From Candidatus Parcubacteria bacterium (GTDB lineage Bacteria > Patescibacteriota > Patescibacteriia > UBA1558 > GWA2-36-10), in NCBI GenBank assembly GCA_018669975.1, contig JABHSK010000005.1, forward strand, positions 121,132-185,131: a DNA stretch of 64,000 bases, in the 5' to 3' direction. Positions 27,767-59,757 of this stretch are shown one piece after another. The notes under the pieces are model-generated. The model did no database searches. It saw only the letters and a list, made by a program, of their open reading frames with translations, and had not been told where the DNA came from. Every line of letters begins with the position of its first letter. Position 1 is the first letter of the stretch. The position numbers were made by a program, and so were the translations under genes.

Positions 27767-30001
27767 ATGATAGCCAAAGCCGAACAAAAATTACTGCTAG
27801 CCAATAAGGTTGTCATTGGTTTGATACTACTGACACCACTAATAGTACATAAATTGTTTGTTAATCCTTTTGAAGTGCCCAAGATTTTGTGGTTTAGAAT
27901 TTTAGTAGAGCTATTATTAGTCTTGTATGTTTTATTGTTGGCACAGAACAAGAAATATAAATTAAACTTTCGACATCCTTTAGTAATTAGCGTTCTAGCT
28001 TTTGTAGTAGCCTTATTCCTCAGTGGTATTTTTGGTGTGCAGTGGACTCGTAGTTGGTGGGGGACACTATCACGTAGTAGCGGACTTTTTAATTGGCTGC
28101 ATATACTAGCTTTCTTTTTGATAACCATCTCTATACTAAAAGAAAAAAAAGATTGGTTGCAATTTTGGAAATTTTTTAGCAGCGTTAGTCTATTGGTTTC
28201 TGTTTACGCAATTTTTCAGAAGATAGGCTGGAATGTATATGAGTCAGGTGTTTTTAGGTTGACTGGTACCATTGGTAATGCGGCTATGTTGGCTGGTTAT
28301 TTATTATTTGGTCTATTTGGCTTTGTTTATCTATTGATTAATTCCAAGAATAATTGGTTGCGTTGGTATTATTTATTTGGTGCAATTTTTAATACTATTA
28401 TTATATTTTTGTCTCAGACTCGTAGTGCTATGATTGGCCTGACGGCAGCAGTTTTATTTGCTCTGGTATTCCTGTCTTTTGGTAAAAATGTGACTAAGCA
28501 AGCCAAAAATTGGCTCAGAATAGCCCTTATTTTGTTAGTTTTGATAGTCGGTGGCTTGTTTGCTGCCAAAGATACAGAACTAGTCAAAAGCAATTATTTA
28601 TTGAGTAGATTTACCGATATTAGAATAGACGATACCACCTTGCAGACTCGTTTTTATTCTTGGCGCGGAGGCTTGGAAGCCTGGCAGGACAAGCCTATTT
28701 TTGGTTGGGGTGAAGCTAATTTTAATATTGCTTACAACAACTATTTTGAAGCTAGTTTTTATGACTATGTTAAGGGTGAGACCTGGTTTGATAAAGCTCA
28801 CAATAACCCAGTTGAATATTTGACGGTCAGTGGCGTAATCGGTTTGGTCACCTATCTGGCTATTTTTGTAATTTTAGTTTTGACTATTATCAAATTAAGG
28901 AAAAGAGATCGAATATCTTATATAGAAACGATTTTATTTTTGAGTTTGCTAATAGCTTACTTTATTCATAACTTGATTGTATTTGATTCTATTAGTACCT
29001 TGATTAGCTTTATGCTGTTTATTGGTCTAGTCTATGGATTGAGTCATCGACAAGATGAAGTGGAACCAAAGCAAGCTCAGTTGAAATTTGCTTTAGTTTA
29101 TATTATTGCTGCTGTGTTGATATTTTTATTTGTAAATATTCGTATTAATATTCCAGTTTGGCAATCTACTATGGAATCTCGAAATGTTATGCAATTGATG
29201 CAAGACAGAGATTATAACAACAATGAGTTATACAGTGATTTGCAAAGTAGTATTGATAGAGACCTACCTTGGGATTGGGAGTTGATTGATAATTACACCA
29301 AGCCAATGATGGATTTAATTAGGGATGAACGTATTCACACTAGCATTGATACAGTTGAGAGTACTTTAGAGGTTATGGCTAATCGTATAGAAGAGATAGA
29401 TCAACCTGAGCTTTTGGATGCCAAGATCTACGCTCGCTTTGCTAGAGTTTATACTTTATTATTAGAACTAAATCCTAACGATCCATATTATTCAGAACGA
29501 GCACAGCATTATTTGAATCGTAGTTTAGAATTGAGTGCCGAGAGAATTCCAACTATGTATATTTTGGCACAGGTACACGCTTTCCTGGGAGAGCAGGAAG
29601 AGGCAGTGGTTGTTTTGGATCAAGCTCGTGATCTTAATGACGAAATACCGCAAACCTATTGGTCATATGCTTTGATTTATAGTGCTCAGGAAGATCAAGG
29701 GGAGTTAGTTGTAGCCAATGTAAAAAAAGCCGTTGATTATGGTTTTGAGTTTACGGATATCAATGATGTAGCTAGTGTTTTACCTGTGTTCCAGGCTGAA
29801 AAAGACTATAAAACCCTAGAATATCTATACGTAGAAGCTATTCGTCTAGATTCAAAAAACCCGCAATGGTATGCGAGTTTAGCGGCTATTTATCAAGAGT
29901 TTGGTGATAAACAAAAAGCCATTGAAACAGTTAATAGGATATTAGAAATAGATTCTGCTTATTTTGAGCAGGTCCAGGAGTTTATAAATTCTTTAGAATA
30001 A
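27767..30001 (+). CDS. O-antigen ligase (Wzy_C)-like polytopic membrane protein fused to a C-terminal TPR domain
   Basis: About 12 TM helices with a large loop region, then about 300 aa of TPR repeats. It is a paralog of the gene at 59900-62089. Confidence 0.65.
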   Translation: MIAKAEQKLLLANKVVIGLILLTPLIVHKLFVNPFEVPKILWFRILVELLLVLYVLLLAQNKKYKLNFRHPLVISVLAFVVALFLSGIFGVQWTRSWWGTLSRSSGLFNWLHILAFFLITISILKEKKDWLQFWKFFSSVSLLVSVYAIFQKIGWNVYESGVFRLTGTIGNAAMLAGYLLFGLFGFVYLLINSKNNWLRWYYLFGAIFNTIIIFLSQTRSAMIGLTAAVLFALVFLSFGKNVTKQAKNWLRIALILLVLIVGGLFAAKDTELVKSNYLLSRFTDIRIDDTTLQTRFYSWRGGLEAWQDKPIFGWGEANFNIAYNNYFEASFYDYVKGETWFDKAHNNPVEYLTVSGVIGLVTYLAIFVILVLTIIKLRKRDRISYIETILFLSLLIAYFIHNLIVFDSISTLISFMLFIGLVYGLSHRQDEVEPKQAQLKFALVYIIAAVLIFLFVNIRINIPVWQSTMESRNVMQLMQDRDYNNNELYSDLQSSIDRDLPWDWELIDNYTKPMMDLIRDERIHTSIDTVESTLEVMANRIEEIDQPELLDAKIYARFARVYTLLLELNPNDPYYSERAQHYLNRSLELSAERIPTMYILAQVHAFLGEQEEAVVVLDQARDLNDEIPQTYWSYALIYSAQEDQGELVVANVKKAVDYGFEFTDINDVASVLPVFQAEKDYKTLEYLYVEAIRLDSKNPQWYASLAAIYQEFGDKQKAIETVNRILEIDSAYFEQVQEFINSLE

Positions 30002-31183
30002 TTTTAGATATAAATCTTCAGTCTCTTTGAGGGTCTTGCTCAGGCTGAAGTTTTCTTTTACATTTTTGTAATTGTTGTCTGCTAGTTGATTAGCTAAGTT
30101 TTGGTCTTTGCTTAGTCTACGCATAGCATTTACCAAAGACACAGGATTAGCTGGCGTAGTTAATAGGCCGGTTTTTTCGTTGCTTAAAACTTCGGGAATG
30201 CCACCTACTTTACTGGCGATGATTGGAATCTTGGCTAGTCCAGCTTCTAGGATAGTGTAAGGCAACCCTTCTTTAACAGAAGGTAGTATAAAATAATCAA
30301 AAGCTTGAAGGTATTTCCAATCGTTATCTTTTGGCTTAATGATTTTTATCAAATCTTCCAGTTGATATTTTTCAATCAACTTTTTAATATCAAACAACTC
30401 TATACCCTCACCAATTAAAAGCCACTGATGATTTCTTACCAATAAAGATTTGTTTTCTCTGAGCTGCTTGATAGCCTCTATTAAATATTGATGTCCTTTG
30501 GTATTGTAAAAACTAGCAATAGTGCCAAAATATTTTTTATTATTTGATAAGTCTAGTTTTTGTCTAGCGGTTTGACGATCATAAAAATCGTAGTCTTCAG
30601 CATTAATACCATTATGAACAGAAAATATTTTGCGGGGATCACAGATATTGTTGTCTAAAGCACTTTGTCTATCAAAATCAGAAACAGCAATTATTAAACT
30701 CTGTAGAGAAGTAGAAAATTGTTCGGAAAATTTATAAAGTTTTCGTTGTACTTTTGATCCCGGTTCATTAAAAACAAAACCGTGAGCAGTATAGACGACG
30801 CGAGGTTTTATATTCATAGGATTAAGAGAGAACATCATAGCACCTAAAGTTCCTAATAATCCAACTTTAGAACTATTTAGATGTATTAAATCATAACTTT
30901 CTTTGCTTAATAATCCACTGACACTGGCGATGGCAGAAAAATCTTTTATGATTTCGATATTGCGTACTAGCTTGGGCAGGGGAATAGTCTTTACTTTTAG
31001 CTCTTTGCAAGAGTCTATAAATTTTTGATTTTGCTTGTTTACTTCTCCAAAAGCTATATGTACTTCGTTGTGCTTTTTGAGATATTTTGCTAATTCCAAT
31101 ACATACTTTTGTGCTCCACCCCACTTAGTTTGAGTGACCAGGAGTAGTATTTTTTTGCCTTTTAGTTGTTTTTTATTTGTCAT
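29993..31183 (-). CDS. Glycosyltransferase family 4 (GT-B)
   Basis: The EGLPYTILEAGLAKIPIIASKVGGIPEV motif is the GT4 EX7E region. Confidence 0.8.
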   Translation of the reverse strand: MTNKKQLKGKKILLLVTQTKWGGAQKYVLELAKYLKKHNEVHIAFGEVNKQNQKFIDSCKELKVKTIPLPKLVRNIEIIKDFSAIASVSGLLSKESYDLIHLNSSKVGLLGTLGAMMFSLNPMNIKPRVVYTAHGFVFNEPGSKVQRKLYKFSEQFSTSLQSLIIAVSDFDRQSALDNNICDPRKIFSVHNGINAEDYDFYDRQTARQKLDLSNNKKYFGTIASFYNTKGHQYLIEAIKQLRENKSLLVRNHQWLLIGEGIELFDIKKLIEKYQLEDLIKIIKPKDNDWKYLQAFDYFILPSVKEGLPYTILEAGLAKIPIIASKVGGIPEVLSNEKTGLLTTPANPVSLVNAMRRLSKDQNLANQLADNNYKNVKENFSLSKTLKETEDLYLKLF

Positions 31184-31286
31184 ATTGGGGGTTTTTTACC
31201 TAAAATTAGCCAAATTGTTAATTGATTTATTTTGTAAATACTGGTATAATTTTATAGAATTTATAAATATTAAGCAAGTAGTAGAT

Positions 31287-32444
31287 ATGAAAAAAATAGT
31301 TATTTTTTCTATAGCCTACCATCCTTTCGTGGGTGGTGCAGAAGTGGCTATCAAAGAGATTACTGATCGTTTACCAGACTATGAATATTATTTGATTACT
31401 AACAAATTTAATGCTGAGTGGCCGGACGAAGAAAAAATTGGCAATATCAATGTTCGACGTCTTGGTAAAGGTAAAAAGTGGGATAAATATTTATATCCCT
31501 TTCGAGCTATTCTTTACACCATGAACTTGCACAAAGTAGTAAAGTTTGATTTTGCTTGGAGTATGATGGCTTTTTATGGAGGTCTTGCAGCCCTGTTTCT
31601 AAAATACAAGACAAAGATTCCATACCTGCTGACTTTGCAGAGCGGGGACAGCGATGAATTTTTACGTAAGCGAACTTGGTTTTGGAGCTATTGGTATAAA
31701 AGAATTTATCGTGAACCAAATATTACTCAGGCAATTAGTAAATTTTTGGCTAAACGTTCTCGTAAGATGGGAAACAGAGGTGAGATTGTCCTCATACCCA
31801 ACGGCGTTGATCTAGCAGTTTTTAAAGCTGGTATATCTGAGGAAGCCAAACAGTCAGTCCGTAAAGAATTAAACATTGCCGATGACGAAAAAATATTTAT
31901 CACTACTTCTAGGCTAGCTCTCAAAAATGGTATTGATGATTTGATCAAGTCTATGAATTTCTTGATTTATAAGAGCGGCATTAAAATAAAATTGCTTATT
32001 CTTGGATCTGGTCCTGACGAAGAAAAACTTAAAGCATTAGCTGAAGAGATGAGAGTAAAGGAGCAGATCTTATTTTTAGGACACCGAGATTACAAAGATT
32101 TACCCAAGTATGTAGAGACTGCTGATATTTTTTGCCGACCATCTTTGTCAGAAGGATTAGGTAATTCATTTTTAGAGTCAATGGCAGTTAATACTCCAAT
32201 TATTGGTACAGAGGTCGGTGGAATTCCTGATTTTCTTCATGATGGTGAGACTGGTTTGTTTTGTAAAGTTAGAAACCCAGTTAGCATTGCCCAGGCTGTA
32301 GAGCGTTATGTAAAAGACAAAGAGCTTTATAAAAAGATTCAAGATGCTGGCAGAGAACTAGTACTTGAGAAATATTCTTGGGATTCTGTAGCCAAACAGA
32401 TGAATCAGGTTTTTCAAGAGGTAGACACTAAGAAGGAAAAATAA
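31287..32444 (+). CDS. Glycosyltransferase family 4
   Basis: EGLGNSFLESMAVNTPIIGTEVGGIPD motif. The start was moved to the internal ATG (MKKIVIFS…), because the ORF-track N-terminal extension overlaps the divergent upstream gene. Confidence 0.8.
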   Translation: MKKIVIFSIAYHPFVGGAEVAIKEITDRLPDYEYYLITNKFNAEWPDEEKIGNINVRRLGKGKKWDKYLYPFRAILYTMNLHKVVKFDFAWSMMAFYGGLAALFLKYKTKIPYLLTLQSGDSDEFLRKRTWFWSYWYKRIYREPNITQAISKFLAKRSRKMGNRGEIVLIPNGVDLAVFKAGISEEAKQSVRKELNIADDEKIFITTSRLALKNGIDDLIKSMNFLIYKSGIKIKLLILGSGPDEEKLKALAEEMRVKEQILFLGHRDYKDLPKYVETADIFCRPSLSEGLGNSFLESMAVNTPIIGTEVGGIPDFLHDGETGLFCKVRNPVSIAQAVERYVKDKELYKKIQDAGRELVLEKYSWDSVAKQMNQVFQEVDTKKEK

Positions 32445-32459
32445 TTTTATTAGGCAGCT

Positions 32460-33491
32460 ATGAAAATATTAATCTTAACTCAAAAAGTTGATTATAATGA
32501 CGGAGTGCTAGGGTTTTTTCATAATTGGCTTAAAAAGTTAGCAGAGCGCTTTGAATATATTACTGTTATTTGTTTGGAAAAAGGCGATTGTGATTTACCA
32601 GCTAATGTTGAAGTCTTATCTCTAGGTAAAGAATCTGGCAATGGTCGTTTTACTTATATGCGTTTGTTTTATAAATATATTTTGCAAACCAAAAAGAATT
32701 ACGATGCAGTTTTAGTACACATGAACCCAGAATATGTAGTTTTAGGGGCTTGGCTATGGAAACTATGGGGTAAAAAGATTGCCTTGTGGTACAACCATTC
32801 TTATGGTGACACTAAAGCCACAGCAGCTATTAATTTAGCTCATAAAGTATTTTTTACATCACCCTATGCTTTTGCGACCGGTTTTGAAAAGGCTCAGGCC
32901 ATGCCAGTTGGTATTGATACTGAGCAGTTCAATCCGCAGGACATTAAGAGTGCATCGAGTAGTTTTAAAATTTTAAGCATTGGGCGCATTTCACCAGTAA
33001 AGAATGTTGACACTTTAATTAAGGCAGCGCATATTTTAGAGCAAGATAAATTTGATTTTGTAGTTCATATATATGGTGATGCACCTAGTCGAGATAAAAT
33101 GTATTTTAATACCGTTAAAGAGTCAGCGTCAGATTTAATTAAAAAGGGTAGAGTAGTTTTTCATAAGGGTATAGCTAACATTAAGACACCAGGTGTTTAT
33201 AATCAGCATGATCTATTTGTCAATCTAACGCCAAGCGGTAGTTTTGATAAGACTATTTTAGAATCTATGTCTTGCAAAGTGCCAATTTTAATTTGTAATA
33301 AGTCCCTAGGCAATTTTTTATCAAATGATTTTTTGTTTGAAGAAAACGACACTAAAGATTTGGTTAGGAAAATAAAACATTTAGCTGGAAAAGATTTGCA
33401 GAGCCAGCAAGACAATTTTAGAAAATATGTTATTGAGAAACATAGCCTCAGGGCTTTAATAGAGAAATTTTATCAGGCTTTTAAAAAATAA
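32460..33491 (+). CDS. Glycosyltransferase (GT4-like)
   Basis: GT-B C-terminal domain with …FDKTILESMSCKVPIL…. Confidence 0.6.
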   Translation: MKILILTQKVDYNDGVLGFFHNWLKKLAERFEYITVICLEKGDCDLPANVEVLSLGKESGNGRFTYMRLFYKYILQTKKNYDAVLVHMNPEYVVLGAWLWKLWGKKIALWYNHSYGDTKATAAINLAHKVFFTSPYAFATGFEKAQAMPVGIDTEQFNPQDIKSASSSFKILSIGRISPVKNVDTLIKAAHILEQDKFDFVVHIYGDAPSRDKMYFNTVKESASDLIKKGRVVFHKGIANIKTPGVYNQHDLFVNLTPSGSFDKTILESMSCKVPILICNKSLGNFLSNDFLFEENDTKDLVRKIKHLAGKDLQSQQDNFRKYVIEKHSLRALIEKFYQAFKK

Positions 33492-33494
33492 ATC

Positions 33495-34625
33495 ATGGCC
33501 AAAGATTTTAAAAAAATAGTTTTAGCAACTGGTATTGTGCCTCCGGACATAGGAGGTCCAGCTACCTATGTGACAAAATTAGGTCAGCAATTTGTGAAAT
33601 TTGGCTATCGAGTCAAAGTGATTAGCTATGGTGATAAAGAATCAGAGATTGATGAAATACTAAGTGTACATAGGATTAGTCGTAAAACAAATGCGCTAAG
33701 TCGCTATTGGCGATATTTTCAACAAGTAAGAAAGCTGGCCAAGTGGGGAGATGTTATCTATGCACAAGATTTGATTAGTGTTGGTTTACCGTGTGCTCTA
33801 GTTAAGGTGTTCAATCCAAAAATAAAAATTATAGTCAGATTGGGCGGAGATTTTTTATGGGAGAAGGCTTACAACAGTGGTTGGAGTAATCAGACTTTGA
33901 GTCAATACCATAGCCAGCCAAAAAATTTCAAAGAAAAAATATATTTAATAATTTATAAATTTTCTTTATCTAAGTTTGATCAGGTTATATTTTCTACTAA
34001 ATGGCAACAGGATATTTATGCTCAATATTTTCCAATAACAAAAAGTAAATCAGTGGTTATTAATAATGCCTTTCCCGAAGATTTGCAAGTGCCAGAAGTT
34101 AGTCAGACAGACAATGCTAGTATTTTATTTGCTGGTCGTTTGATAAAGTTAAAAAACTTAACCAGGGTAATAGAGGCTATTAAGGATATAGCTAATACAA
34201 AAATGACTATTGTTGGTAGTGGTCCAGAAAAAAAATACCTGTTGGAGCTGATTAAAAAACTAAACATGGGGAATAGGGTGCACTTTAAGAATCGTATGCC
34301 TCTGACAGAGTTAGCTAAAGAAATTTCCAGAAGTCATTTTACTATTGTGCCATCCATATCTGAAGTTAGTCCTAATATAGCCCTAGAGTCTATTAGGTTA
34401 AATAAGCCAGTGTTGTTGACCAAGGAATCTGGGTTTTATCCAGAATTTAAAGATAAATTAATGTTTATTGACCCATTAGATGTTGGTGATATTCAAAATA
34501 AAATTGTTACCTTATTTGATGAGGATAAATATAATAAGTATTTAGCTGTTGTTAAAGCAATAGATTCTAGTCGTGGTTGGCATAACCTAGCTGATGAACA
34601 TATTGATTTATTTAAAAAAGTTTAA
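33495..34625 (+). CDS. Glycosyltransferase family 4-like
   Basis: GT-B architecture with …SPNIALESIRLNKPVLLTK…. Confidence 0.65.
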   Translation: MAKDFKKIVLATGIVPPDIGGPATYVTKLGQQFVKFGYRVKVISYGDKESEIDEILSVHRISRKTNALSRYWRYFQQVRKLAKWGDVIYAQDLISVGLPCALVKVFNPKIKIIVRLGGDFLWEKAYNSGWSNQTLSQYHSQPKNFKEKIYLIIYKFSLSKFDQVIFSTKWQQDIYAQYFPITKSKSVVINNAFPEDLQVPEVSQTDNASILFAGRLIKLKNLTRVIEAIKDIANTKMTIVGSGPEKKYLLELIKKLNMGNRVHFKNRMPLTELAKEISRSHFTIVPSISEVSPNIALESIRLNKPVLLTKESGFYPEFKDKLMFIDPLDVGDIQNKIVTLFDEDKYNKYLAVVKAIDSSRGWHNLADEHIDLFKKV

Positions 34626-34627
34626 TA

Positions 34628-35701
34628 ATGAAAATTTTAGGACTTGGTTTAGACCAAACAATTTTAGATAAAAATTCAGCCTTAGCTCAACGAGCTAGGG
34701 AGTATAGTGATTTGGTAGAAAAATATGTAGTAATCGTACCAGCACAGTCAAATCAAAAAGTAGTTTTGTCCGACAAGGTTATGGTTTACGGAGTTAAAGC
34801 TAGTAATAAAATTTTTACACTCCTGGCCATTTGTAAGTTAGGTAGAAAAATTTTAAAGGGAGACAAGTTTGATGTCATCACTGCACAGGATCAATATTTT
34901 CTTGCTTGGGTTGCTTATCGTTTGGCTAGACAATTTAAGAATGGTTTAGAGATTCAGGTGCATGGTTTTGAAAAATTTTATGGTTTAAGAAAAATAATTG
35001 CTAAGTTTGTTTTGCCACGAGCCAATGTAGTGCGGGTAGTTAGTCAAAGATTAAAAAAACAATTGATAAAAGATTTTAGCGTAAAAGAAAATAACATAGT
35101 AGTAGTGCCCATTTATGTAGATACTAGTCATAATTTATCAAAAATAGACAGACAGGATGATAAATTTATTTTTATGACAGCTAGTCGCTTGGTGCCCGTA
35201 AAAAACATTGGTATGCAAATTGATGCTATGAATAAATTATCCAAAGAACACGATAATGTTGAGTTGCAGATTTTTGGGCAAGGTCCTGTGGAAGGTGAGT
35301 TAAGAGCTAAAGTTAAGTTATTAAAACTAGAAGATAAAGTTATATTTAAGGGTTGGGTTGATAATTTAGAAAAATATTATCAGCAAGCAGATGTTTTTGT
35401 GTTGAGCTCAAACGCGGAAGGTTGGGGCATGGTAATCGTTAAAGCAGCTAGTATTGGTTTGCCGATTATTATGACTGATGTTGGGTGTGCTGGAGAAGTC
35501 ATTAAAGATCAGGAGAGTGGATTGGTGGTGCCGGTTGGAGATACCGAGGTTTTATATCAAGCCATGAAAAATATAATTACCGATAATGACTTACGTAATA
35601 AGATAACAGAAGGGGGTAGACAAGCAGTTCAACAGTTACTAAATAAAGATCAAACCCTAGATTTATATAAGCAGAGTTGGAAGCAAACAATAAACGAATG
35701 A
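34628..35701 (+). CDS. Glycosyltransferase family 4
   Basis: EGWGMVIVKAASIGLPIIMTDVGCAGEVI motif. Confidence 0.8.
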   Translation: MKILGLGLDQTILDKNSALAQRAREYSDLVEKYVVIVPAQSNQKVVLSDKVMVYGVKASNKIFTLLAICKLGRKILKGDKFDVITAQDQYFLAWVAYRLARQFKNGLEIQVHGFEKFYGLRKIIAKFVLPRANVVRVVSQRLKKQLIKDFSVKENNIVVVPIYVDTSHNLSKIDRQDDKFIFMTASRLVPVKNIGMQIDAMNKLSKEHDNVELQIFGQGPVEGELRAKVKLLKLEDKVIFKGWVDNLEKYYQQADVFVLSSNAEGWGMVIVKAASIGLPIIMTDVGCAGEVIKDQESGLVVPVGDTEVLYQAMKNIITDNDLRNKITEGGRQAVQQLLNKDQTLDLYKQSWKQTINE

Positions 35702-36792: not shown

Positions 36793-36853
36793 TTGACTTT
36801 GTATAGTAAAACTAGTATTATTTTTAAATTAAGAATTAAGTAATAAATTATTT

Positions 36854-37438: not shown

Positions 37439-37443
37439 AACAT

Positions 37444-38408: not shown

Positions 38409-38447
38409 AAATTCCCCGTCGAGTTTAACTCGACGGGGTTTTTGTTT
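38409..38447. terminator. Bidirectional intrinsic terminator with an 11-bp stem (ccccgtcgagt-tta-actcgacgggg)
   Basis: Perfect inverted repeat flanked by aaaatt and tttttgtttt. It separates two convergent genes. Confidence 0.6.
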
Positions 38448-41661: not shown

Positions 41662-41670
41662 AAATAAAAA

Positions 41671-45910: not shown

Positions 45911-45921
45911 AGTACGTATTT

Positions 45922-46728: not shown

Positions 46729-46732
46729 ATTT

Positions 46733-49836: not shown

Positions 49837-49897
49837 AATATTGATAAAAATAGAATTTTGTGTTCTAATAAGGACTACATAACGTTAAAATTTACTA

Positions 49898-52652: not shown

Positions 52653-52655
52653 TTT

Positions 52656-53633
52656 ATGAAATTTATTATTACCGTAGATACAGAGGCTGACAATGAGTGG
52701 CAGCGCTTAGATAAAATTAAAGTAGAAAATATTAAGTTTCTACCTCGTTTTCAAGCACTGTGCGAAAAATATGAGTTTAAACCTACTTATTTATTGACCT
52801 ATGATGTAGCGAGCGACAAGGAGTCTGTGTCAATTTTAAAGCCTTGGCAAGACAGCGGACAGGCTGAAATAGGGGCTCATTTGCATCCCTGGTCTAATCC
52901 ACCGATGACCAAAGAAAGGAGTTGGGAGACGAAACATCACCGATTTCCGCATGATTTAAGTGAGGATGAATTAAAGTCTAAAATGGAGACCTTGACTAAC
53001 GTCATTAAAGATAATTTTCAAATTATGCCTAAAAGTTTTCGAGCTGGACGTTGGGGCTTTGATAAGCGGGTAGCTAAAGAGATTACCCGATTAAATTATT
53101 TAGTTGATTGTTCAATCACACCCAAGATAGATTGGACTAGAACCAAAGGGGATCCAAATGGTCAGGGTGGAAAAAATTTCAAGCATTATCAGGTGGCACC
53201 ATATTTTTTAGATATTGATAATATTTCTAAGGTGGGTAAAAATAATTTATTAGAAGTGCCAATGACTGTTTTATTTACCTTGCTTTTTAAAAAGGAAGAT
53301 ACATCATTGAGTAATTTTTTTCTAGGTTTACCAGATAGTTTTTTCAAGAAAGTAATTAACAAATTATTTTTTGGACAAAAATGGTTGAGGGTTTTTCCTA
53401 ATTCCAAAATGAAAGATTGGCAAAGAATTTATGAGTCTGCCAAGAAAAATAATTTACCAGTGATGGAATTCATGATTCATTCTAGTGAATTAATGCCAGG
53501 TGGTAGTCCCTATGCCAAAGATCATCAGTCGGTCGAGTTTGTTTATCAGCAAATAGAGGATTTGTTCAAATTTTTGAAGAAGCAGGGCTTACAGGGGAGA
53601 ACCTTAAGTGAATTTTATTATGATTTTAAATAA
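52656..53633 (+). CDS. Putative polysaccharide deacetylase-like (divergent CE4-type) protein (weak)
   Basis: The N-terminal FIITVDTEAD resembles the NodB motif TFDDG. Low confidence. Confidence 0.3.
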   Translation: MKFIITVDTEADNEWQRLDKIKVENIKFLPRFQALCEKYEFKPTYLLTYDVASDKESVSILKPWQDSGQAEIGAHLHPWSNPPMTKERSWETKHHRFPHDLSEDELKSKMETLTNVIKDNFQIMPKSFRAGRWGFDKRVAKEITRLNYLVDCSITPKIDWTRTKGDPNGQGGKNFKHYQVAPYFLDIDNISKVGKNNLLEVPMTVLFTLLFKKEDTSLSNFFLGLPDSFFKKVINKLFFGQKWLRVFPNSKMKDWQRIYESAKKNNLPVMEFMIHSSELMPGGSPYAKDHQSVEFVYQQIEDLFKFLKKQGLQGRTLSEFYYDFK

Positions 53634-54309
53634 TATGAGAGACAAACTTAGAAAATTTATCAAAGACAATAGAGGGATTAGTAAATTTTTGTTAGCTAAG
53701 TTTATCAAATTGCATAATTATTCTTACCATAAAATTTCTGAGTATGCAGGCTACCTTAATAACGATATTCATCCCAAACATGACATTATAAAATACCACC
53801 AATTTTATGTAGATAATTTGTCAGCTGATGATATTGTATTAGATCTTGGTTGTGGTAATGGATTCCTAAGTTACGACATGGCTAAGAAAGCCAAGGAAGT
53901 TGTTGGTATTGAGATTAAGGATTATAATATTAAATATGCTAAAGAACATTATCAGCGTGATAATTTAAAATTTATAGTTGCTGATGCTACAGAGTATGAG
54001 TGGCAAAAAAAGTTTGATAAAATTGCCCTGTCTAATGTTTTAGAGCATATAGAGGATAGAATTACTTTTCTTAAGAAAATAAAAAAGATTAGTGATACTA
54101 TTATATTACGGGTACCGATGATAAATAGGGAGTGGTTAGCTGTTTATAAAAAAGAGAATGGCTTTGAATACAAATTAGATAATACACATTATATAGAGTA
54201 TACTCTAGATTCACTGCAGACTGAGTTAAAACAGGCTGGTTGGCAGATTGAGTCCTATCAAGTTAATTGGGGCGAATTTTGGGGTGTTTTAAAGGTAAAA
54301 AATGACTAA
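53608..54309 (+). CDS. Class I SAM-dependent methyltransferase
   Basis: Motif I is VLDLGCGNGFL. The start is ambiguous (overlaps the upstream gene; internal ATGs exist at about 53620 and 53635). Confidence 0.7.
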   Translation: MNFIMILNNMRDKLRKFIKDNRGISKFLLAKFIKLHNYSYHKISEYAGYLNNDIHPKHDIIKYHQFYVDNLSADDIVLDLGCGNGFLSYDMAKKAKEVVGIEIKDYNIKYAKEHYQRDNLKFIVADATEYEWQKKFDKIALSNVLEHIEDRITFLKKIKKISDTIILRVPMINREWLAVYKKENGFEYKLDNTHYIEYTLDSLQTELKQAGWQIESYQVNWGEFWGVLKVKND

Positions 54310-55411
54310 ACAGAATCGAAAAAAAGTATTATTTTTGGTAAATAGTCTACAAATTGGTGGGGCAGAAAATGCTTTTGTGAAGCAGGCTAATTACTTTTCT
54401 AAACAGGGCATCAAGGTTTATTTTGGTGTTTTGTCTACGAGTAATAAAAAGAATTTTCAAGATCAATTGCAGGTTAAAATTAGAGATTTTGGCTTTCAAG
54501 GCATTTTTGATGTTCAGGCTTATCAAAAATTAAAAGCATATATCAAGAAGCATGATATTGATATTGTTTATTCTACTCTAGACAATGCTAATATTGTTGC
54601 TCGTGTAGCTAAGTTGTTTTGCCCAGGTTTATTTGTAGTTATCAGAGAATCGGGCATGGCCAATAGGAAGTCTTGGAAGATTAAATTGAGCGATCTTATT
54701 TTGAATTTTTTAGCTAACAAGGTAATCGCTGTTTCTAGCCACGTTAAAGATAGCCTCAAGGCTTATCAATTTTTGCATAGTGGACGGATAGTGGTCCTAG
54801 CTAATGGTATAGAGGTTTTTTCTGGTCAAAAAGAGTTAGCATTGAAGTTTGATCAGCACAAAGAGAGCTTTGATATGCTCAATGTTGGCTCTATGAAAAA
54901 TAATAACAAAGGTCAGGGTAACTTGATAAAAATATTACGACAGTTAAGACAGGAGCAGCCAAAGTTAAATATTAGATTAATATTAGTTGGCGATGGCAAG
55001 CTTAGACAAGACTTTCAAGATTTAGTTGAAAAATATAAACTTAATAAATACGTTATTTTTACTGGTATGCTGGATAAAGAAAAATTAAATCATTTTTATT
55101 CTGCAGCTGATATTTTTATTCTTAACTCAAACAATGAAGGTTGTCCAAATGTTGTTTTGGAGGCCATGTCGTTTGGATTACCGGTTATTTCTACTAAAGT
55201 TGGTGGTACTACTGAGATGATTGACGAAGGTGAGTCTGGTTATTTAGTTAATTCCGGAGATCATGATACAATAAAAACTAGAATACTCGATCTGTACAAT
55301 GACAAAGCATTGCGACAAAGTATGGGTCAGCAGTCAATTGATAGGGTGTCTAAACGTTTTTTATTTGATGGACAGATGAAAAAATTAATTAATATTTTAG
55401 GTTTAAAATAA
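54302..55411 (+). CDS. Glycosyltransferase family 4
   Basis: EGCPNVVLEAMSFGLPVISTKVGGTTE motif. Confidence 0.8.
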   Translation: MTKQNRKKVLFLVNSLQIGGAENAFVKQANYFSKQGIKVYFGVLSTSNKKNFQDQLQVKIRDFGFQGIFDVQAYQKLKAYIKKHDIDIVYSTLDNANIVARVAKLFCPGLFVVIRESGMANRKSWKIKLSDLILNFLANKVIAVSSHVKDSLKAYQFLHSGRIVVLANGIEVFSGQKELALKFDQHKESFDMLNVGSMKNNNKGQGNLIKILRQLRQEQPKLNIRLILVGDGKLRQDFQDLVEKYKLNKYVIFTGMLDKEKLNHFYSAADIFILNSNNEGCPNVVLEAMSFGLPVISTKVGGTTEMIDEGESGYLVNSGDHDTIKTRILDLYNDKALRQSMGQQSIDRVSKRFLFDGQMKKLINILGLK

Positions 55412-55412
55412 A

Positions 55413-56201
55413 ATGAATTTTAATGAATTTAGAACTAAGGCTCAAGCGGGCAAAGAAGGTAAGATAAAATCTAGTAGCATCATGTATAGGTGGCAGCGTT
55501 ATCTTTCTATTCGTATTTCATGGCTATTAATAAAAGTATTTCCTAAGATTAGAGCCAATCATGTTTCTTTATTTAATATTTTATTCTTGTTAGCTATATT
55601 TTTATTTAGCTTTTTTGCTTTAAAAGTAGGGGTTATAATGACCGTGTTTATCCAGCTGATTTTACTTAACTTTACTTCTGTATTAGATAAAATCGATGGC
55701 GAAATAGCTCGACATCAAGAGTATTTTACTCAACGTGGAGTTTATTATGATTTAGTTTATCATTTTTTCTATACGTTTGTATTTTATTTTGTAGTTGGTT
55801 TTTATTTCTTTCTTAATACAGCCAATATATTTATTTGGTTGCCGACATTATTTTTAGCTATCATTGCTACCAACCACAAAATGTTAGGTAAACTACGACA
55901 TCATGTGGGTTACAAGGTGTTGTTAGAACATCATGGTCAAATTATTAAAGATTTTGTTCCAGAGAGAGTTAAGCCAAAAAGAAAAGCAAGACTTTGGCGA
56001 GTCTTGGGTTATCTTATTTTTATGATGTATGACTGGACCTGGACTTTTTATTTTTTATTGATTGTTCTGTCTTATTTCCATTTTTCTCTAGCAGCCTTCT
56101 TATTCTTTGTTCACGTCATCGTATCTATAATAATGTTTTTATATCAGATATTGTCTTCTTTTCCAAAAAAAGGTTTATATACTAGAGATGAATTGAATTA
56201 A
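55413..56201 (+). CDS. CDP-alcohol phosphatidyltransferase-family membrane protein
   Basis: DKIDGEIARHQEYFTQRGVYYD fits D-x2-D-G-x2-A-R…G…D. Polytopic. Confidence 0.55.
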   Translation: MNFNEFRTKAQAGKEGKIKSSSIMYRWQRYLSIRISWLLIKVFPKIRANHVSLFNILFLLAIFLFSFFALKVGVIMTVFIQLILLNFTSVLDKIDGEIARHQEYFTQRGVYYDLVYHFFYTFVFYFVVGFYFFLNTANIFIWLPTLFLAIIATNHKMLGKLRHHVGYKVLLEHHGQIIKDFVPERVKPKRKARLWRVLGYLIFMMYDWTWTFYFLLIVLSYFHFSLAAFLFFVHVIVSIIMFLYQILSSFPKKGLYTRDELN

Positions 56202-57454
56202 GAGAAAGCTTTTTTATAGTAAGTGCGGTAGAGAGCGAATAACACAGCCTCTGAAATTATCGTACCAATAATCATTCCCCATAAACCATAAAATTTTAGA
56301 GCTACAAATAATATAACAATTCTAAAGATAGGGCTTATTATTCTAATCGAATAGAGCTCTTTTTGTTTCATTTTAGCTACTAGTACTGTAGATAAAAAAG
56401 TTCTAGGAAAGAATAGTAGAGTTAATACATAGACTTGGGAATATCGTGCAGACTCTATATATTGCGGGAATACAAATTTGTATAGCAATGGTGCCAAGGC
56501 AGCATAAAGTATGATGATAAGGATAACTACTATTTCTAATTTTCTTACCTTTTGTAAAAAAGAATCTTTAATATCTTTTTCGTCTACTTCACTTAGCTTT
56601 GGCAGAGCTAGTGACTTGAGATTCAGCAATACACTTTTGATTTGACTGACTGGTGCGGTAGTAAAAGCATAGATAGCTAATTGAGCAGCACCTAAGTAAT
56701 GGAAAATTAATATTTTATCTACCTGTCCAGCGATAGTCTTCAGTAATTCCATGGCACTTAGATTGAGGCCATAGGAGACTGTTTTAGGATCGTTATCTTT
56801 ATTGAGTGGATGTTTTTTGATATACACCCAAGTAAAGATGAATTGCATGATACTGTCAGGGATCAGAAAGGCTGCTAGTATAAAGAATATGTTATCAGTA
56901 AAAAATAGTGTGCTCAGCATAACGAGGCTGGCAACGATGCGTACCAGGCTATTGTAGGTAGCAGATAGCTTAAAGTCTTTACGACCGTTTAAAACAGCTA
57001 TATATAGGCCAGAAGCCCTTAGTAATGGCAGGAAAACAGCTACCATTACAAAAGATATGGTTAATGTTAGATTAGCACCCATATAATAATAAGATGCAAT
57101 ACCTAAACTACCTAAACTGGCCAATAGGGACCAGCGTAGTTTAGCTACGAAACTAGGCCAATAAACAGCCTCATATTTCCTAGCTACAGCTTGAATAACA
57201 GCCGTATTGATGCCACTCAAGGTAAAAACATTCAACACACCCACCAAAGATAATACGTATCTATAGGTACCGTAGGTTTCTTTAGGGAGTAGATTAGCAA
57301 AAGCGATGGCTAATAAAAAAGCAGCCCCAGAAGAAATAAATTGTCCTAGAGTCAACCAAAAACCACCCTTGGCTAGATAGACCATGTCGGTCTTTGTGTA
57401 TTCCTCACTTTTACGTAGCAAGTGATAAATTTTGTTTTGTAGTTTATCAAGCAT
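56198..57454 (-). CDS. Polysaccharide biosynthesis protein / Wzx-type oligosaccharide flippase (MOP superfamily)
   Basis: About 12-14 TM helices with the typical size (418 aa) and composition, in a glycan-locus context. Confidence 0.65.
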   Translation of the reverse strand: MLDKLQNKIYHLLRKSEEYTKTDMVYLAKGGFWLTLGQFISSGAAFLLAIAFANLLPKETYGTYRYVLSLVGVLNVFTLSGINTAVIQAVARKYEAVYWPSFVAKLRWSLLASLGSLGIASYYYMGANLTLTISFVMVAVFLPLLRASGLYIAVLNGRKDFKLSATYNSLVRIVASLVMLSTLFFTDNIFFILAAFLIPDSIMQFIFTWVYIKKHPLNKDNDPKTVSYGLNLSAMELLKTIAGQVDKILIFHYLGAAQLAIYAFTTAPVSQIKSVLLNLKSLALPKLSEVDEKDIKDSFLQKVRKLEIVVILIIILYAALAPLLYKFVFPQYIESARYSQVYVLTLLFFPRTFLSTVLVAKMKQKELYSIRIISPIFRIVILFVALKFYGLWGMIIGTIISEAVLFALYRTYYKKAFS

Positions 57455-58391
57455 TATCTTTTATCCAAGTGATTGTTTGTCGAAGTCCTCCCTCAAAATC
57501 TATACCTGGTTGGTATCCTAATAATTCAGTAGCTTTACTGATATCGGCTAGTGAGTGTTTAATGTCACCTTGTCGTGGTTCAGAAAATTTGCTAGTGATA
57601 TTTTTTCCTAAAATTTTATTAATAGTAGCTACTAATTCATTTAGCGTATATGCTTTACCACAGGCAATATTAATAGCTTCGCCATGTCCAGCTTTATCAG
57701 AATGCATAGCTAGGATATTAGCTTCAACATTATTTTTTACAAAAGTAAAATCACGACTGTGTTCACCGTCACCAAAAATAGTTGGTGATTCATCTTTTAG
57801 TATAGCTTTTATAAAGAGAGGAATGACAGCAGCATAATCTGATTGCGGATCTTGATTTGGACCAAAGACATTAAAGTATCTTAGGGAGACTGTTTCTAAT
57901 CCGTATAGATTGTAAAATACCTTGCAATAATATTCACCCATCAGTTTGGCGATTGCATAAGGAGAAAGTGGATCATTTTGTAAATCTTCTGATTTATATT
58001 CTTCTTTAGCATCACCATAGACTGATGATGATGAAGCATAGACGACTCTTTTGACTTTAGCATCTCTGGCAGCCTGTAAAATATTTAATATGCCAGTAGC
58101 ATTATTAAAGTGGCTATCCATTGGGGATTCAATTGATCTAGGTACTGACGGCAGAGCTGCTTGATGCAATACAAAATCTACATCAGCAAATTCTTGTTGT
58201 AGTAGTTTAGTGTCATTAATGTCGCCCTCAATAAACTTTATTTTATCTTTGATGGAATCTAGATTGATCAAGCGTCCAGTGCTGAGGTTGTCTAGCACCT
58301 TGACGTTATAGTCTCTGGCCAGTAATTCGCTGGCGATATTAGACCCAATAAAACCGGCACCACCGGTTATTAATACAGTTTGTTTAGCCAT
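57447..58391 (-). CDS. NAD-dependent epimerase/dehydratase (UDP-hexose 4-epimerase-like)
   Basis: The Rossmann motif is VLITGGAGFIGSNI. YAIAK supplies YxxxK. Confidence 0.85.
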   Translation of the reverse strand: MAKQTVLITGGAGFIGSNIASELLARDYNVKVLDNLSTGRLINLDSIKDKIKFIEGDINDTKLLQQEFADVDFVLHQAALPSVPRSIESPMDSHFNNATGILNILQAARDAKVKRVVYASSSSVYGDAKEEYKSEDLQNDPLSPYAIAKLMGEYYCKVFYNLYGLETVSLRYFNVFGPNQDPQSDYAAVIPLFIKAILKDESPTIFGDGEHSRDFTFVKNNVEANILAMHSDKAGHGEAINIACGKAYTLNELVATINKILGKNITSKFSEPRQGDIKHSLADISKATELLGYQPGIDFEGGLRQTITWIKDNA

Positions 58392-58392
58392 T

Positions 58393-59757
58393 TTATCTTC
58401 CTAAAGTTATATTAAATACAGTATTTATAGTTTTGAGGATAATTGAAATATCCAAAGCAATTGAACGATTTTTGATGTAAAAAAGGTCATATTGCAGCTT
58501 TTCTAGGGCATCTTCTACAGAAGAGCCGTAGGGGAAATTGATTTGTGCCCAACCACTTAAGCCGGGTTTTACTAGATGTCTTTCGTTGTAAAAAGATATT
58601 TTTTCTTTTAGTTGGTCTACAAACTCTGGTCTTTCTGGTCGAGGACCAACAAAGCTCATATTGCCTTTAACAATATTCCAGAACTGAGGTATTTCATCAA
58701 TTCTTGCTTTACGTATGAATTTGCCGATGCCAGTAACGCGAGCATCATTTTTACTAGCCCATTGAGCTCCACTTTTTTCAGCATCTTGAACCATGGAGCG
58801 GAATTTATAAACTGTAAAGATTTTTCCATTAAGTCCAACTCTTTTTTGTTTATAGATAAGAGGTCCTTTTGAGCCAGTCTTTATCAGGATAGCTATGATT
58901 GGTATAAAGAGTAGTGAAATTAAACCAAATAAAGAAGCAAAAAAGATATCAATTACTCTTTTAACTATCGCAAACCATTGCTCATTTTTTTGAGTAAAGT
59001 TTTCTAGAAACCAATTTCTTTCCAGTGAGGTGACTGGCACCTTGCCAGTGAGCTTTTCATAAAAGTCTGTTAGATTGAAATACTGTATTTTTAAATCAAT
59101 GCTTTCAAATAAGTATTTAGCTACCTCAGGACCATAGCGTGTATCGTTGACAGCTACCACGGTATTTATTTTGTGCTTGATGAGTTGATTTTTAAGATCA
59201 GCAATGTCTTTGCTCATGGTGACCACTTGAAATTTTTCAGGGATAACTGCATGATCAGGGTTTATAATTAACTTTAGCTTATAACCAAGTTGTGGTTTGG
59301 TGATAGTTTCTTCAGCTAATAAGAGTGATTCAGGTGTGACACCAATGATAGCTAGGTTAGCGCCCATTGTAGAACTGGAAATAATTTTGTAAAAAAGTTT
59401 CCGCCATAACAGGAACAGGACAGTAAATACTACTAAAAGTATCAATAGTATAGTTTGAGGCTTTAAATAGCTAAAGCGTCCTAGGATCAAGTAAAAAAAC
59501 AGCACTGCCAGTAGTGCATTGATGGCTAGGTTTTGTATTAGGTGACCAAAAAATTTAAAGTCATTTTCTGCTTTACGTATCTCATATAGTCCATTGATAA
59601 AGAATACGATAACCCATATACTAAATACCAACGAAAAAGGTCCAAGGTGTTCCTGCCATAATTGACTATCAAGACGTCCATATCTGAGTAATAGGGTTAG
59701 GGCGAGACTAGTATACAGCAAGGCAACGTCGACCAGGAATAAGACAAATTTTTTCAT
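58393..59757 (-). CDS. Polyprenyl-phosphate hexose-1-phosphate transferase (WbaP/bacterial sugar transferase family); priming enzyme
   Basis: N-terminal TM helices, then the conserved C-terminal domain …KRVIDIFFASLFGL…YKFRSM…DEIPQFWNIVKGNMSFVGPRPERPEF. Confidence 0.85.
   Translation of the reverse strand: MKKFVLFLVDVALLYTSLALTLLLRYGRLDSQLWQEHLGPFSLVFSIWVIVFFINGLYEIRKAENDFKFFGHLIQNLAINALLAVLFFYLILGRFSYLKPQTILLILLVVFTVLFLLWRKLFYKIISSSTMGANLAIIGVTPESLLLAEETITKPQLGYKLKLIINPDHAVIPEKFQVVTMSKDIADLKNQLIKHKINTVVAVNDTRYGPEVAKYLFESIDLKIQYFNLTDFYEKLTGKVPVTSLERNWFLENFTQKNEQWFAIVKRVIDIFFASLFGLISLLFIPIIAILIKTGSKGPLIYKQKRVGLNGKIFTVYKFRSMVQDAEKSGAQWASKNDARVTGIGKFIRKARIDEIPQFWNIVKGNMSFVGPRPERPEFVDQLKEKISFYNERHLVKPGLSGWAQINFPYGSSVEDALEKLQYDLFYIKNRSIALDISIILKTINTVFNITLGR

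Follow-up and report, generated by a model that had tools for sequence, protein, structure and literature searches.

A surface-glycan locus of ~34 kb lies at ~27.2-62.1 kb of a 64,000-nucleotide stretch of contig JABHSK010000005.1 (the window, whose coordinates are used throughout), from a Candidatus Parcubacteria bacterium with a small genome. It contains two genes for B12-binding radical S-adenosylmethionine (SAM) proteins, designated rSAM1 and rSAM2. Gene identities were assigned from the listing of open reading frames (ORFs) together with Pfam and NCBIfam scans at curated cut-offs. The window has a GC content of ~0.35 and its first 13.6 kb is a ribosomal-protein/SecY/Adk/Map operon, which places the locus in the core chromosome of this small candidate phyla radiation (CPR) genome. 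A previous annotation made without database searches, hereafter the sequence-only reading, had put the borders of the locus at 29993 and 59757; we set them further out because paralogous genes encoding Wzy_C and tetratricopeptide repeat (TPR) domains bracket these borders. The plus-strand genes form two runs, 31134-38400 and 40573-56201, with a spacing of -26 to +61 nt except around the inverted rSAM1 gene, and this tight packing argues for true gene clustering rather than chance. Overall, the locus is modular and consists of a Wzx/Wzy-type core and two cassettes, A and B, with rSAM1 in the former and rSAM2 in the latter.

The core has components of the classical heteropolysaccharide pathway. 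A convergent unit on the minus strand encodes a Wzx flippase of the MOP family (56198-57454; PF01943 71.7 bits, PF13440 63.8 bits; ~12 transmembrane (TM) segments), the short-chain dehydrogenase/reductase (SDR) SDR314 (57447-58391) and a WbaP-type polyprenyl-phosphate hexose-1-phosphate transferase (58393-59757; TIGR03025 374.5 bits against a cut-off of 295.55, PF02397 225 bits). SDR314 resembles the 4-epimerases TviC (253 bits) and GalE (196 bits), both scores being below the cut-offs. Eight family-4 glycosyltransferases (GT4) match PF00534: the divergently transcribed GT4_a (29993-31183, minus strand; 115.6 bits) and, on the plus strand, GT4_b to GT4_f (31134-32444, 32460-33491, 33495-34625, 34628-35701 and 35677-36792; 43-141 bits), GT4_g (49898-50995; 96.8 bits) and GT4_h (54302-55411). 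Two polytopic Wzy_C proteins with TPR flank the locus, both on the plus strand: the left one (27767-30001; PF04932 78.4 bits) has ~12 TM segments and a C-terminal TPR, and the right one (59900-62089; PF04932 76.8 bits) is its paralogue, with 26% identity (E 1e-64). A Wzy_C domain is compatible with a polymerase, a ligase or an O-oligosaccharyltransferase alike. The ORF scans from 27 to 63 kb revealed no domain of a chain-length regulator (Wzz/PCP), and Rfam and tRNA scans of the window, which cover cobalamin and SAM riboswitches, gave no match. Outside the locus, a gene of the WecA/MraY family lies at 13977-15044 (PF00953 93.7 bits). The sequence-only reading had listed Wzx, the WbaP-like priming enzyme, the WecA/MraY-family gene, eight GT4 and one GT2 genes, and the scans bear out all of these.

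Cassette A comprises four genes. MT1_194 (36854-37438, plus strand) is a small class-I methyltransferase that matches PF13649 and PF08241 at threshold; SDR318 (37444-38400, plus strand) is an extended SDR of the Mth373 (UDP-xylose synthase (UXS)/ArnA-decarboxylase-like) type; rSAM1 (38457-40415, minus strand) has 652 residues; and WecB (40573-41661, plus strand) is a non-hydrolysing UDP-GlcNAc 2-epimerase that yields UDP-N-acetylmannosamine (UDP-ManNAc), with 293 bits to TIGR00236 against a cut-off of 210, in agreement with the wecB assignment made earlier. Both domains of rSAM1 score above the cut-offs (PF02310 44.1 bits against 32.1, PF04055 38.3 bits against 29.5), and its CxxxCxxC motif (C202/C206/C209) is invariant in the family alignment. 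The best curated model is KedN5 (NF033712), which aligns to residues 19-389 only and gives 307.5 bits; the cut-off is 700, and by this threshold rSAM1 falls outside the KedN5 family, though it is like the TokK/CysS group. The closest solved relatives are TokK (PDB 7kdx; E 1e-93 over residues 16-478) and CysS (E 6e-49).

Alignment of rSAM1 against TokK revealed that the cofactor motifs are largely retained. The segment A66-F-S68-S-S70-L-W72 corresponds to A70...W76 of TokK, with the Tyr of A-x-S-x-Y-x-W replaced by Ser, and W72, the Trp under the cobalamin, matches W76 of TokK and is invariant in the rSAM1 family. In the cluster-binding loop C202x3C206x2C209-Y-W211, the residue W211 corresponds to W215 of TokK, and D245-A246-N247, which stands in place of GGE, corresponds to D250-A251-N252. 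The Cbl-downstream Trp motif, the CX3CX2C-X-W loop and D-A-N instead of GGE are traits of iterative methylases; the characterised members of the TokK/CysS group add several methyls serially, and CysS takes a methyl to ethyl, isopropyl and butyl (PMC9204698). The C-terminal ~170 residues of rSAM1 are specific to its own family. Taken together, these motifs suggest that rSAM1 is a TokK/CysS/KedN5-like, cobalamin-dependent enzyme and a probable C-methyltransferase.

The rSAM1 gene stands out from its surroundings. It is the only inverted gene within the plus-strand run, and its GC content is 0.448 compared to 0.348 in the rest of the window, that is ~10 points above the surroundings; in other CPR loci the overall GC excess of its homologues is only ~1.5-7 points. 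An origin of this excess wholly in amino-acid composition was ruled out by the GC content at third codon positions, which is 0.43 in rSAM1 and 0.24-0.33 in the neighboring genes. A bidirectional intrinsic-terminator-like hairpin at 38414-38438 (11-bp stem, eight GC pairs, T-runs on both strands) sets rSAM1 off from the convergent SDR318, and promoter-like sites at 40520-40561 fall within the 157-nt gap upstream of wecB, the first gene of the long right-hand operon. Because of the inversion, the outlying GC content, its own terminator and the promoter-like gap, we consider rSAM1 a discrete insertion between the SDR gene and wecB, probably due to a recent horizontal replacement or insertion. A foreign, inverted and monocistronic gene of this kind would also suit another explanation, that the locus is an ordinary polysaccharide cluster and that the rSAM genes are unrelated passengers acting on lipid, peptide, cofactor or RNA substrates. 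This explanation is best weighed against the genomic contexts of the two families.

Both families are large, with more than 2,000 database clusters each at E <= 1e-20, and at least 584 GTDB species are confirmed to carry a member of the rSAM1 family; the earlier description of two radical SAM enzymes inside a polysaccharide cluster as uncommon is wrong at the level of the family. Loci from other genomes are referred to here by L numbers. An rSAM1 homologue of 82% identity sits in a fully syntenic locus. Those of 52-55% identity, from Taylorbacteria, Saccharibacteria and an unclassified bacterium, lie among GT4, GT2 and methyltransferase genes, and for most of them SDR318, WecB and MT1_194 have clear orthologues alongside, at 530-590, 498-519 and 309-319 bits, respectively. 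SDR318 orthologues adjoin rSAM1 in L003, L008, L010 and L011, MT1_194 orthologues follow it directly in L008, L009 and L010, and orthologues of GT4_c and GT4_f accompany it in L001, L009 and L010. In L008 and L010, rSAM1, MT1, SDR318 and WecB form one co-directional operon; such an operon in Saccharibacteria is hard to reconcile with rSAM1 as a passenger. More distant homologues (37-43% identical), from Planctomycetales, Vicinamibacterales and a relative of Beggiatoa, have genes for GMD-like SDR, DegT, GT4, GT61 and GHMP-kinase proteins nearby. Other distant members of the family favor the passengers: they form tandem arrays in Clostridia and occur in Streptomyces, which suggests roles in natural products there.

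These arrays were seen in nine loci of Clostridia/Acutalibacteraceae (L043, L051, L052, L057, L066, L067, L069, L074 and L080), each with 3-6 paralogues that are ~33-35% identical to rSAM1. In L064, L072 and L079, which are also from Acutalibacteraceae, a WbaP-like gene lies beside rSAM1. In addition, the Taylorbacteria locus L001 carries genes for bAvd and a reverse transcriptase (347-1774), hallmarks of a diversity-generating retroelement, ~8 kb upstream of its rSAM1 homologue.

SDR318 offers a clue to the sugar. It aligns over its full length to Mth373 of Methanothermobacter (PDB 8w3u/9ar1; 322 bits, E 2e-95) and keeps the signature motifs EFGRW, SSE, YAMSK and TTKSK. Two extended SDRs had been proposed as epimerases at the locus; both are present, and SDR318 departs from the generic epimerase that had been assumed. 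Mth373 was crystallised with UDP-xylose and proposed as a UDP-xylose synthase/decarboxylase, a function assigned from this complex and from modelling, not from an assay with the native substrate (PMC12820599). The homology of SDR318 thus hints at uronic-acid chemistry, into which the AsnB-family glutamine amidotransferase of cassette B (42120-43943, plus strand) would fit as a uronamide-forming enzyme. We infer this amidating role of AsnB on a uronic acid. No signature of a UDP-sugar (6-)dehydrogenase was found anywhere in the window (1-64000), and the uronic-acid reading of AsnB and SDR318 therefore stays inferential. A UXS-like SDR together with an AsnB-type amidotransferase would be expected to need uronic acids.

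The AsnB protein starts with MCG, so that the catalytic Cys2 is present, and has both the GATase (PF13537 147.9 bits) and the Asn_synthase (PF00733 333.9 bits) domains. It also passes the generic asparagine synthase model TIGR01536 (485 bits against a cut-off of 267), as a housekeeping asparagine synthetase with its Cys2 would. The AsnB-type amidotransferase named in the sequence-only reading is confirmed. We hold a housekeeping role very unlikely. The gene sits between two GtrA genes in a glycan operon, and its product is nearer to the TIGR03108 model of exopolysaccharide-locus amidotransferases (492 bits) than to the AsnB model PRK09431 (336 bits). In four other phyla, AsnB homologues occur together with rSAM2 and GT2, in one case as the compact four-gene unit described below, and the surface-layer glycosylation (slg) clusters of Paenibacillus alvei also hold an asparagine synthase homologue (PMC2943079).

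Cassette B, on the plus strand, consists of GtrA1 (41671-42117), AsnB, GtrA2 (43948-44373), GT2_293 (44393-45274), the class-I methyltransferases MT2_208 (45284-45910) and MT3_268 (45922-46728), the 563-residue polytopic protein TM563 (46733-48424) and rSAM2 (48424-49836). The small membrane proteins GtrA1 and GtrA2 are paralogues with 46% identity, scoring 67.8 and 64.8 bits against PF04138 (cut-off 26.1), and GtrA1 is probably a flippase for a polyprenyl-phosphate-linked sugar. In GT2_293 (PF00535 113.5 bits), the C-terminus carries a TM segment and residues 90-92 are DGD. Its best NCBIfam matches, AglJ, ArnC, PgfS and PpgS, are all below the curated cut-offs, and its full-length matches in the PDB are ArnC (9hwj), GtrB (5ekp) and dolichyl-phosphate mannose synthase (DPMS; 5mlz). 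GT2_293 is therefore a probable, homology-based candidate for a polyprenyl-phosphate sugar synthase of the ArnC/GtrB/DPMS type. MT2_208 and MT3_268 match the Pfam families Methyltransf_23/_11; a C-terminal TM segment proposed for the latter turned out to be a hydrophobic stretch at residues 169-201 of 268.

TM563 belongs to no sequence family, and only 21 homologues were retrieved by word index and 20 by a profile search of 1.84 billion representatives. The AlphaFold2 model built on the 20-sequence alignment has a mean predicted local distance difference test (pLDDT) of 84.7 and a predicted template modelling score (pTM) of 0.86. In a Foldseek search of the PDB, each of the eight best-scoring structures is that of a GT-C enzyme (PglB, DPY19, ArnT, AftD or AftB), with a probability of 1.00 and E values of 8e-5 to 3e-2. 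GT-C enzymes bear a catalytic acidic residue in the first outer loop after TM1, and the motif S44-D45-x-W47 of TM563, just past TM1 in the first outer loop, is invariant. The predicted structure thus points to a GT-C-fold glycosyltransferase of a lineage that sequence methods do not recognize. In three-component systems such as Gtr, Arn and CsbB/GtcA/YfhO, a sugar is put on polyprenyl phosphate, flipped and transferred outside the membrane. GT2_293 probably works with GtrA and the GT-C enzyme TM563, and by analogy the GT2, two GtrA and GT-C proteins of cassette B may be the parts of such an Arn/Gtr/CsbB-YfhO-type system.

The last gene of cassette B encodes rSAM2, a protein of 470 residues that matches PF02310 (81.1 bits) and PF04055 (89.3 bits) above the cut-offs. 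Its CxxxCxxC motif (C209/C213/C216) is invariant in the alignment of its family; the two B12-binding radical SAM proteins of the sequence-only reading are thus confirmed, and each has this motif. Judged by sequence similarity, rSAM2 would be a generic member of the main BchE/HpnJ/MoeK5-type cluster of radical SAM enzymes. Its best curated models are BchE (224.6 bits, cut-off 481.35) and HpnJ (195.4 bits, cut-off 577.6), and its best matches in the PDB are AprD4 and one unnamed protein.

As BchE, HpnJ and AprD4 are non-methylases, rSAM2, and possibly rSAM1, might not be a methyltransferase and might instead use cobalamin and the 5'-deoxyadenosyl radical to rearrange, dehydrate or cyclise a lipid-linked sugar or to contract its ring. 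Precedents for this alternative are HpnJ, whose substrate is hopanoid-linked glucosamine, and AprD4, which acts on the sugar of an aminoglycoside, and the five class-I methyltransferases of the locus already provide capacity for methylation. In a published review, HpnJ and BchE count as non-methylases and HpnJ groups in the sequence network with Fom3 and the sugar C-methylase MoeK5; most of the characterised class-B enzymes are methylases (PMC9204698). Moreover, the scores of rSAM2 all lie far under the family cut-offs, and rSAM1 keeps the TokK methylase motifs. We therefore regard a non-methylase as unlikely, though far from negligible, and continue with alkylation by rSAM1 and tailoring of a lipid-linked sugar by rSAM2 as the preferred functions.

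The genomic context of rSAM2 is similarly informative. In Magasanikbacteria, Syntrophales, Elusimicrobia and Thermodesulfobacteriota, homologues with 46-67% identity adjoin AsnB and GT2 genes, and the AsnB linkage was found in L005, L006, L007 and L167. The loci of Magasanikbacteria and Syntrophales also hold methyltransferases, and in L005 and L006 the genes next to rSAM2 include an MT3 orthologue. A polytopic protein of 557-601 residues is present at all of these loci except that of Elusimicrobia (L007). A BLAST comparison among the membrane proteins of ~560-600 residues beside the rSAM2 homologues detected no similarity, and they are treated as equivalent from their position and topology. 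A compact four-gene arrangement was found in Thermodesulfobacteriota (L167, 2307-8622), where the 557-residue polytopic protein, GT2, the rSAM2 homologue and AsnB form a single unit that looks like a self-contained, possibly mobile glycan-modification cassette. A metagenome scan with back-translated rSAM2 patterns was too general and retrieved only paralogues of 27-36% identity; used as a loose control, it gave a GT2_293-like gene in 18 of the 42 loci that hold these distant paralogues.

Two loci have further features. The L167 unit adjoins resolvase/recombinase genes and is otherwise without glycan genes in its vicinity. L089 has an array of rSAM2-like genes beside a GT2 gene; of its six members, five are consecutive and point in the same direction.

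Sugar-pathway genes thus neighbor both rSAM families in most of the contexts examined and in several phyla; in most of the independent genomes covered the closest homologues lie among glycosyltransferase, SDR, WecB, AsnB or GT2 genes. Neither protein gives a confident match to a family acting on tRNA, rRNA, ribosomally synthesised peptides or cofactors. A secure place in a non-glycan family and a lack of linkage to glycosyltransferase genes, the two findings that would have spoken for passengers, were accordingly seen for neither rSAM1 nor rSAM2, and we give the passenger explanation very little credence. The proposal that this is a heavily tailored glycan locus, in which both class-B radical SAM genes are part of the glycan chemistry, is supported.

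Two syntenic loci of 17.7 kb each from relatives show what the scaffold looks like when the radical SAM genes are missing. In L170, SDR318 (73.5% identical) is followed 12 bp on by WecB (60%) with no rSAM1 between them, and the order GtrA-AsnB(55%)-MT-MT-GT2-TM563(44%)-GT4_f is found as well. L169 has the order TM563-GT4_g-MT4/FemAB-PDA325-MT5-GT4_h-CDP-OH-Wzx-Wzy_C, which includes the orthologue of GT4_g; the succession MT5, GT4_h and CDP-alcohol transferase is the same as in the window, and the position of the right-flank Wzy_C gene is also occupied. A tblastn search of both loci detected no rSAM gene. Such syntenic relatives without either gene would be expected of passengers too; in view of the linkage described above, we interpret both rSAM genes as optional additions to a scaffold that is conserved in CPR.

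The region between rSAM2 and Wzx, which follows this scaffold, encodes further decorating enzymes on the plus strand. MT4_303 (50992-51903) combines a class-I methyltransferase domain with an N-terminal Zn-ribbon; the Trm112-like match suggested for it earlier is present and weak (24 bits). It overlaps the separate gene of the FemAB/GNAT-like protein FemAB250 (51900-52652), as assigned by the Pfam/NCBIfam scans. In L169, a single protein of 541 residues (10781-12406) fuses homologues of MT4_303 (42%) and of the FemAB-like protein (54%), and this Rosetta-stone fusion indicates that the two probably act together. A carbohydrate esterase family 4 (CE4)-like gene follows MT4/FemAB in both loci. 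In the window its product is PDA325 (52656-53633), a putative CE4/NodB-like deacetylase with a weak match to PF01522 (E 0.0013, 19.1 bits) below the cut-off and no match to NCBIfam, and its L169 orthologue shares 48% identity. The class-I methyltransferase MT5_233 (53608-54309; Pfam) and, after GT4_h, a membrane protein of the CDP-alcohol phosphatidyltransferase family (55413-56201; 23.9 bits, cut-off 22) complete the run, the latter agreeing, weakly, with its earlier assignment. Of the six class-I methyltransferases claimed for the locus, five were found (36854-37438, 45284-45910, 45922-46728, 50992-51903 and 53608-54309). Scans of every ORF against Pfam and NCBIfam and a search for SAM motifs gave no candidate for a sixth. 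The two GtrA genes, TM563, the FemAB-like and CE4-like genes and the two Wzy_C+TPR genes had been absent from the earlier list.

The acceptor of the glycan may be encoded next to the locus. Immediately upstream on the plus strand lie a gene for a secreted protein of 1306 residues (23117-27037), which has a signal peptide, is rich in Thr, Ser, Ala and Gly (11.7% Thr, 11.3% Ser) and is a candidate S-layer-like surface protein, and a gene for a small TPR protein (27151-27762; TPR_14, TPR_2) with an N-terminal hydrophobic signal. The large protein shares 25% identity over 1155 residues (E 7e-31) with a protein of 1220 residues in L003, whose gene adjoins TPR, SDR318 and rSAM1. In S-layer slg clusters, Wzy_C(+TPR) proteins are predicted O-oligosaccharyltransferases (PMC2943079). 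By analogy with these clusters, the Ser/Thr-rich 1306-residue protein might be the glycan acceptor, a possibility that we place somewhat below even odds.

The product could also be a wall-anchored or free heteropolysaccharide, such as a secondary cell-wall polymer or capsule, in which case the 1306-residue protein would be unrelated and the Wzy_C+TPR proteins would serve as polymerase and ligase. Wzx, WbaP and Wzy_C make up the classical pathway for such a polymer, the CDP-alcohol transferase and the WecA-like enzyme (13977-15044) suggest teichoic-acid-like chemistry, and the large protein has no S-layer domain. Set against this, the gene order of a large secreted protein, a small TPR protein and a Wzy_C+TPR protein mirrors that of slg clusters with O-oligosaccharyltransferases (PMC2943079), and in L003 the large-protein homologue is again beside an rSAM1 cassette. 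We judge the chances of a heteropolysaccharide to be even; protein O-glycosylation and a wall-linked polysaccharide are about equally likely.

Further upstream, genes for an extracytoplasmic function (ECF) sigma factor (20753-21328) and a DUF5667 protein (21339-22703) precede those of the 1306-residue and TPR proteins, and the whole stretch (20753-27762) may be a regulated surface-protein unit. Apart from rSAM1, GC content is also raised (0.426) in a patch at 18001-20000, with ORFs at 18134-18478 (minus strand), 18571-19230 and 19270-19905; the last two belong to no Pfam family, and no Rfam or tRNA match accounts for the composition of the patch. On the other side, directly past the glycan locus (62214-63772), the next genes encode a protein of 380 residues, with a methyl-accepting chemotaxis protein (MCP) signalling domain and TM segments at the N-terminus, and then a CheW-like protein; such chemotaxis parts are unexpected for a streamlined CPR genome.

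The present analysis provides insights into how the glycan might be assembled and tailored. With a probability of roughly 0.7, we propose that this is a modular surface-glycan locus in which the rSAM genes are tailoring add-ons within cassettes A and B. By homology, the WbaP-type phosphoglycosyltransferase primes polyprenyl phosphate, the eight GT4 enzymes assemble the unit in the cytoplasm, and Wzx flips it, after which the flanking Wzy_C+TPR pair would polymerise the unit and/or ligate it to an acceptor. Cassette A (MT1_194, SDR318, rSAM1 and WecB) would make a ManNAc-derived or decarboxylated nucleotide sugar, of which rSAM1 would C-methylate an unactivated carbon, possibly iteratively; as one possibility, rSAM1 might extend a methyl set by the small methyltransferase MT1, in a CysS-like manner. 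In cassette B (GtrA1, AsnB, GtrA2, GT2_293, MT2, MT3, TM563 and rSAM2), the GT2 enzyme would load a sugar on polyprenyl phosphate, and AsnB, through amide formation, together with MT2, MT3 and rSAM2 would tailor it on the cytoplasmic face. Once tailored, the sugar would be flipped by GtrA and moved by TM563 onto the exported glycan or protein. MT4 with the FemAB-like protein, the CE4-like deacetylase, MT5 and the CDP-alcohol transferase may add further decoration.

Several results weigh against this proposal. Neither rSAM protein reaches the cut-off of any curated enzyme family, all scores being far below, including those of the tRNA/rRNA, BchE, HpnJ and KedN5 models. MT1 is absent from the rSAM1 loci L003 and L011, and an alphaproteobacterial rSAM2 homologue (L168) has no glycan genes on its one visible side. 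The TM-scores of TM563 to GT-C structures are only 0.35-0.47, and the 1306-residue protein has neither a Pfam family nor a recognised S-layer domain in the Pfam scan. To these are added, from above, the best matches of rSAM2 to non-methylases, the pass of AsnB in the generic asparagine synthase model and the window without a dehydrogenase signature.

The rSAM1 protein shares the B12 and radical SAM domains and the cofactor motifs with TokK, ThnK, CysS and KedN5, and is paired with a small class-I methyltransferase in the window and in L008-L010, which by analogy may recall the methyl extension by CysS. The enzymes of the TokK/CysS group belong to antibiotic clusters (carbapenem, cystobactamid, kedarcidin), whereas rSAM1 lies in a CPR surface-glycan locus with WecB, SDR and glycosyltransferase genes. 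Similarly, rSAM2 has the same domain set as MoeK5, GenK/GenD1 and HpnJ, with BchE/HpnJ-type models nearest, the likeness to MoeK5 and GenK being drawn from their descriptions. It is associated, as MoeK5 and HpnJ are, with a glycosyltransferase for putting a sugar on a lipid carrier, a probable function in the case of GT2_293, and like the pathway of rSAM2, that of moenomycin includes an amidotransferase (MoeH5) acting on sugar carboxylates. The moenomycin amidotransferases are AsnB-type enzymes, and the literature on MoeK5 and MoeF5 lends this comparison indirect support only. The pathways of MoeK5 and GenK belong to secondary metabolism, in contrast to the cell-envelope pathway of rSAM2.

Compared to the Gtr, Arn and CsbB systems, cassette B shares the GT2, two GtrA-family proteins and a GT-C fold; in addition, the CE4-like gene recalls ArnD and the UXS/ArnA-decarboxylase-like SDR318 recalls ArnA. 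It differs in the addition of AsnB, two methyltransferases and a B12 radical SAM protein and in a GT-C protein outside the known families, and the locus has no ArnB-type aminotransferase or formyltransferase. A further parallel is the Mth370-378 cluster of Methanothermobacter thermautotrophicus, in which Mth373 lies beside genes for dolichyl-phosphate mannose synthase-like GT2 proteins and one for an RgtA/B/C/D-like (GT-C) protein; its host is an archaeon, and no radical SAM gene was reported there (PMC12820599).

The slg clusters of Geobacillus stearothermophilus and P. alvei share with the locus an adjoining gene for a large secreted protein, a small TPR protein (WsaA-like), Wzy_C+TPR proteins (WsfB, PglL-like), a WbaP homologue (WsaP/WsfP-like), an asparagine synthase homologue (WsfA-like), ManNAc supply and methyltransferases (PMC2943079). 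However, G. stearothermophilus exports by a Wzm/Wzt ABC transporter and the window locus by Wzx, and radical SAM genes do not feature in the description of those clusters (PMC2943079). The locus also differs in having two Wzy_C+TPR paralogues and a large protein with no recognised S-layer or S-layer homology (SLH) domain. Altogether, the locus type is known; what is new are the radical SAM tailoring cassettes in an envelope-glycan locus and the GT-C lineage not recognized from sequence. Our literature searches retrieved no account in which B12 radical SAM enzymes regularly form part of envelope-glycan loci, nor one of this GT-C lineage, and the characterised cases of radical SAM sugar C-methylation come from antibiotic pathways, such as those of gentamicin and moenomycin (PMC9204698).

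A broader and more tentative proposal, which we consider rather unlikely as a whole, is that the two large rSAM families are exchangeable plug-in genes for glycan tailoring across many phyla, among them CPR, Planctomycetota, Elusimicrobiota and Desulfobacterota, with rSAM1 providing alkyl branches and rSAM2 acting on an AsnB-amidated lipid-linked sugar. The branches would then be C-methyl, ethyl or isopropyl groups on a ManNAc-derived sugar or on a methyl installed by the partner enzyme, and rSAM2 would modify the polyprenyl-phosphate sugar before the novel GT-C enzyme attaches it outside the cell. The natural plus/minus variants, the window type on the one hand and L169 and L170 on the other, make the question directly testable.

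If the rSAM proteins alkylate surface glycans, new sugar structures would result that may be relevant to recognition of phages or hosts and to the episymbiotic attachment of CPR bacteria, and thousands of proteins annotated as B12-binding radical SAM would gain functions. A genome with an inferred size of ~0.85 Mb would then invest in cobamide-dependent surface chemistry, and, to our knowledge, CPR bacteria are generally thought to lack a pathway for cobamide synthesis. Were the plug-in proposal true, a streamlined symbiont would rely on external cobamide to decorate its surface, and the chemistry would constitute a new class for envelope glycans.

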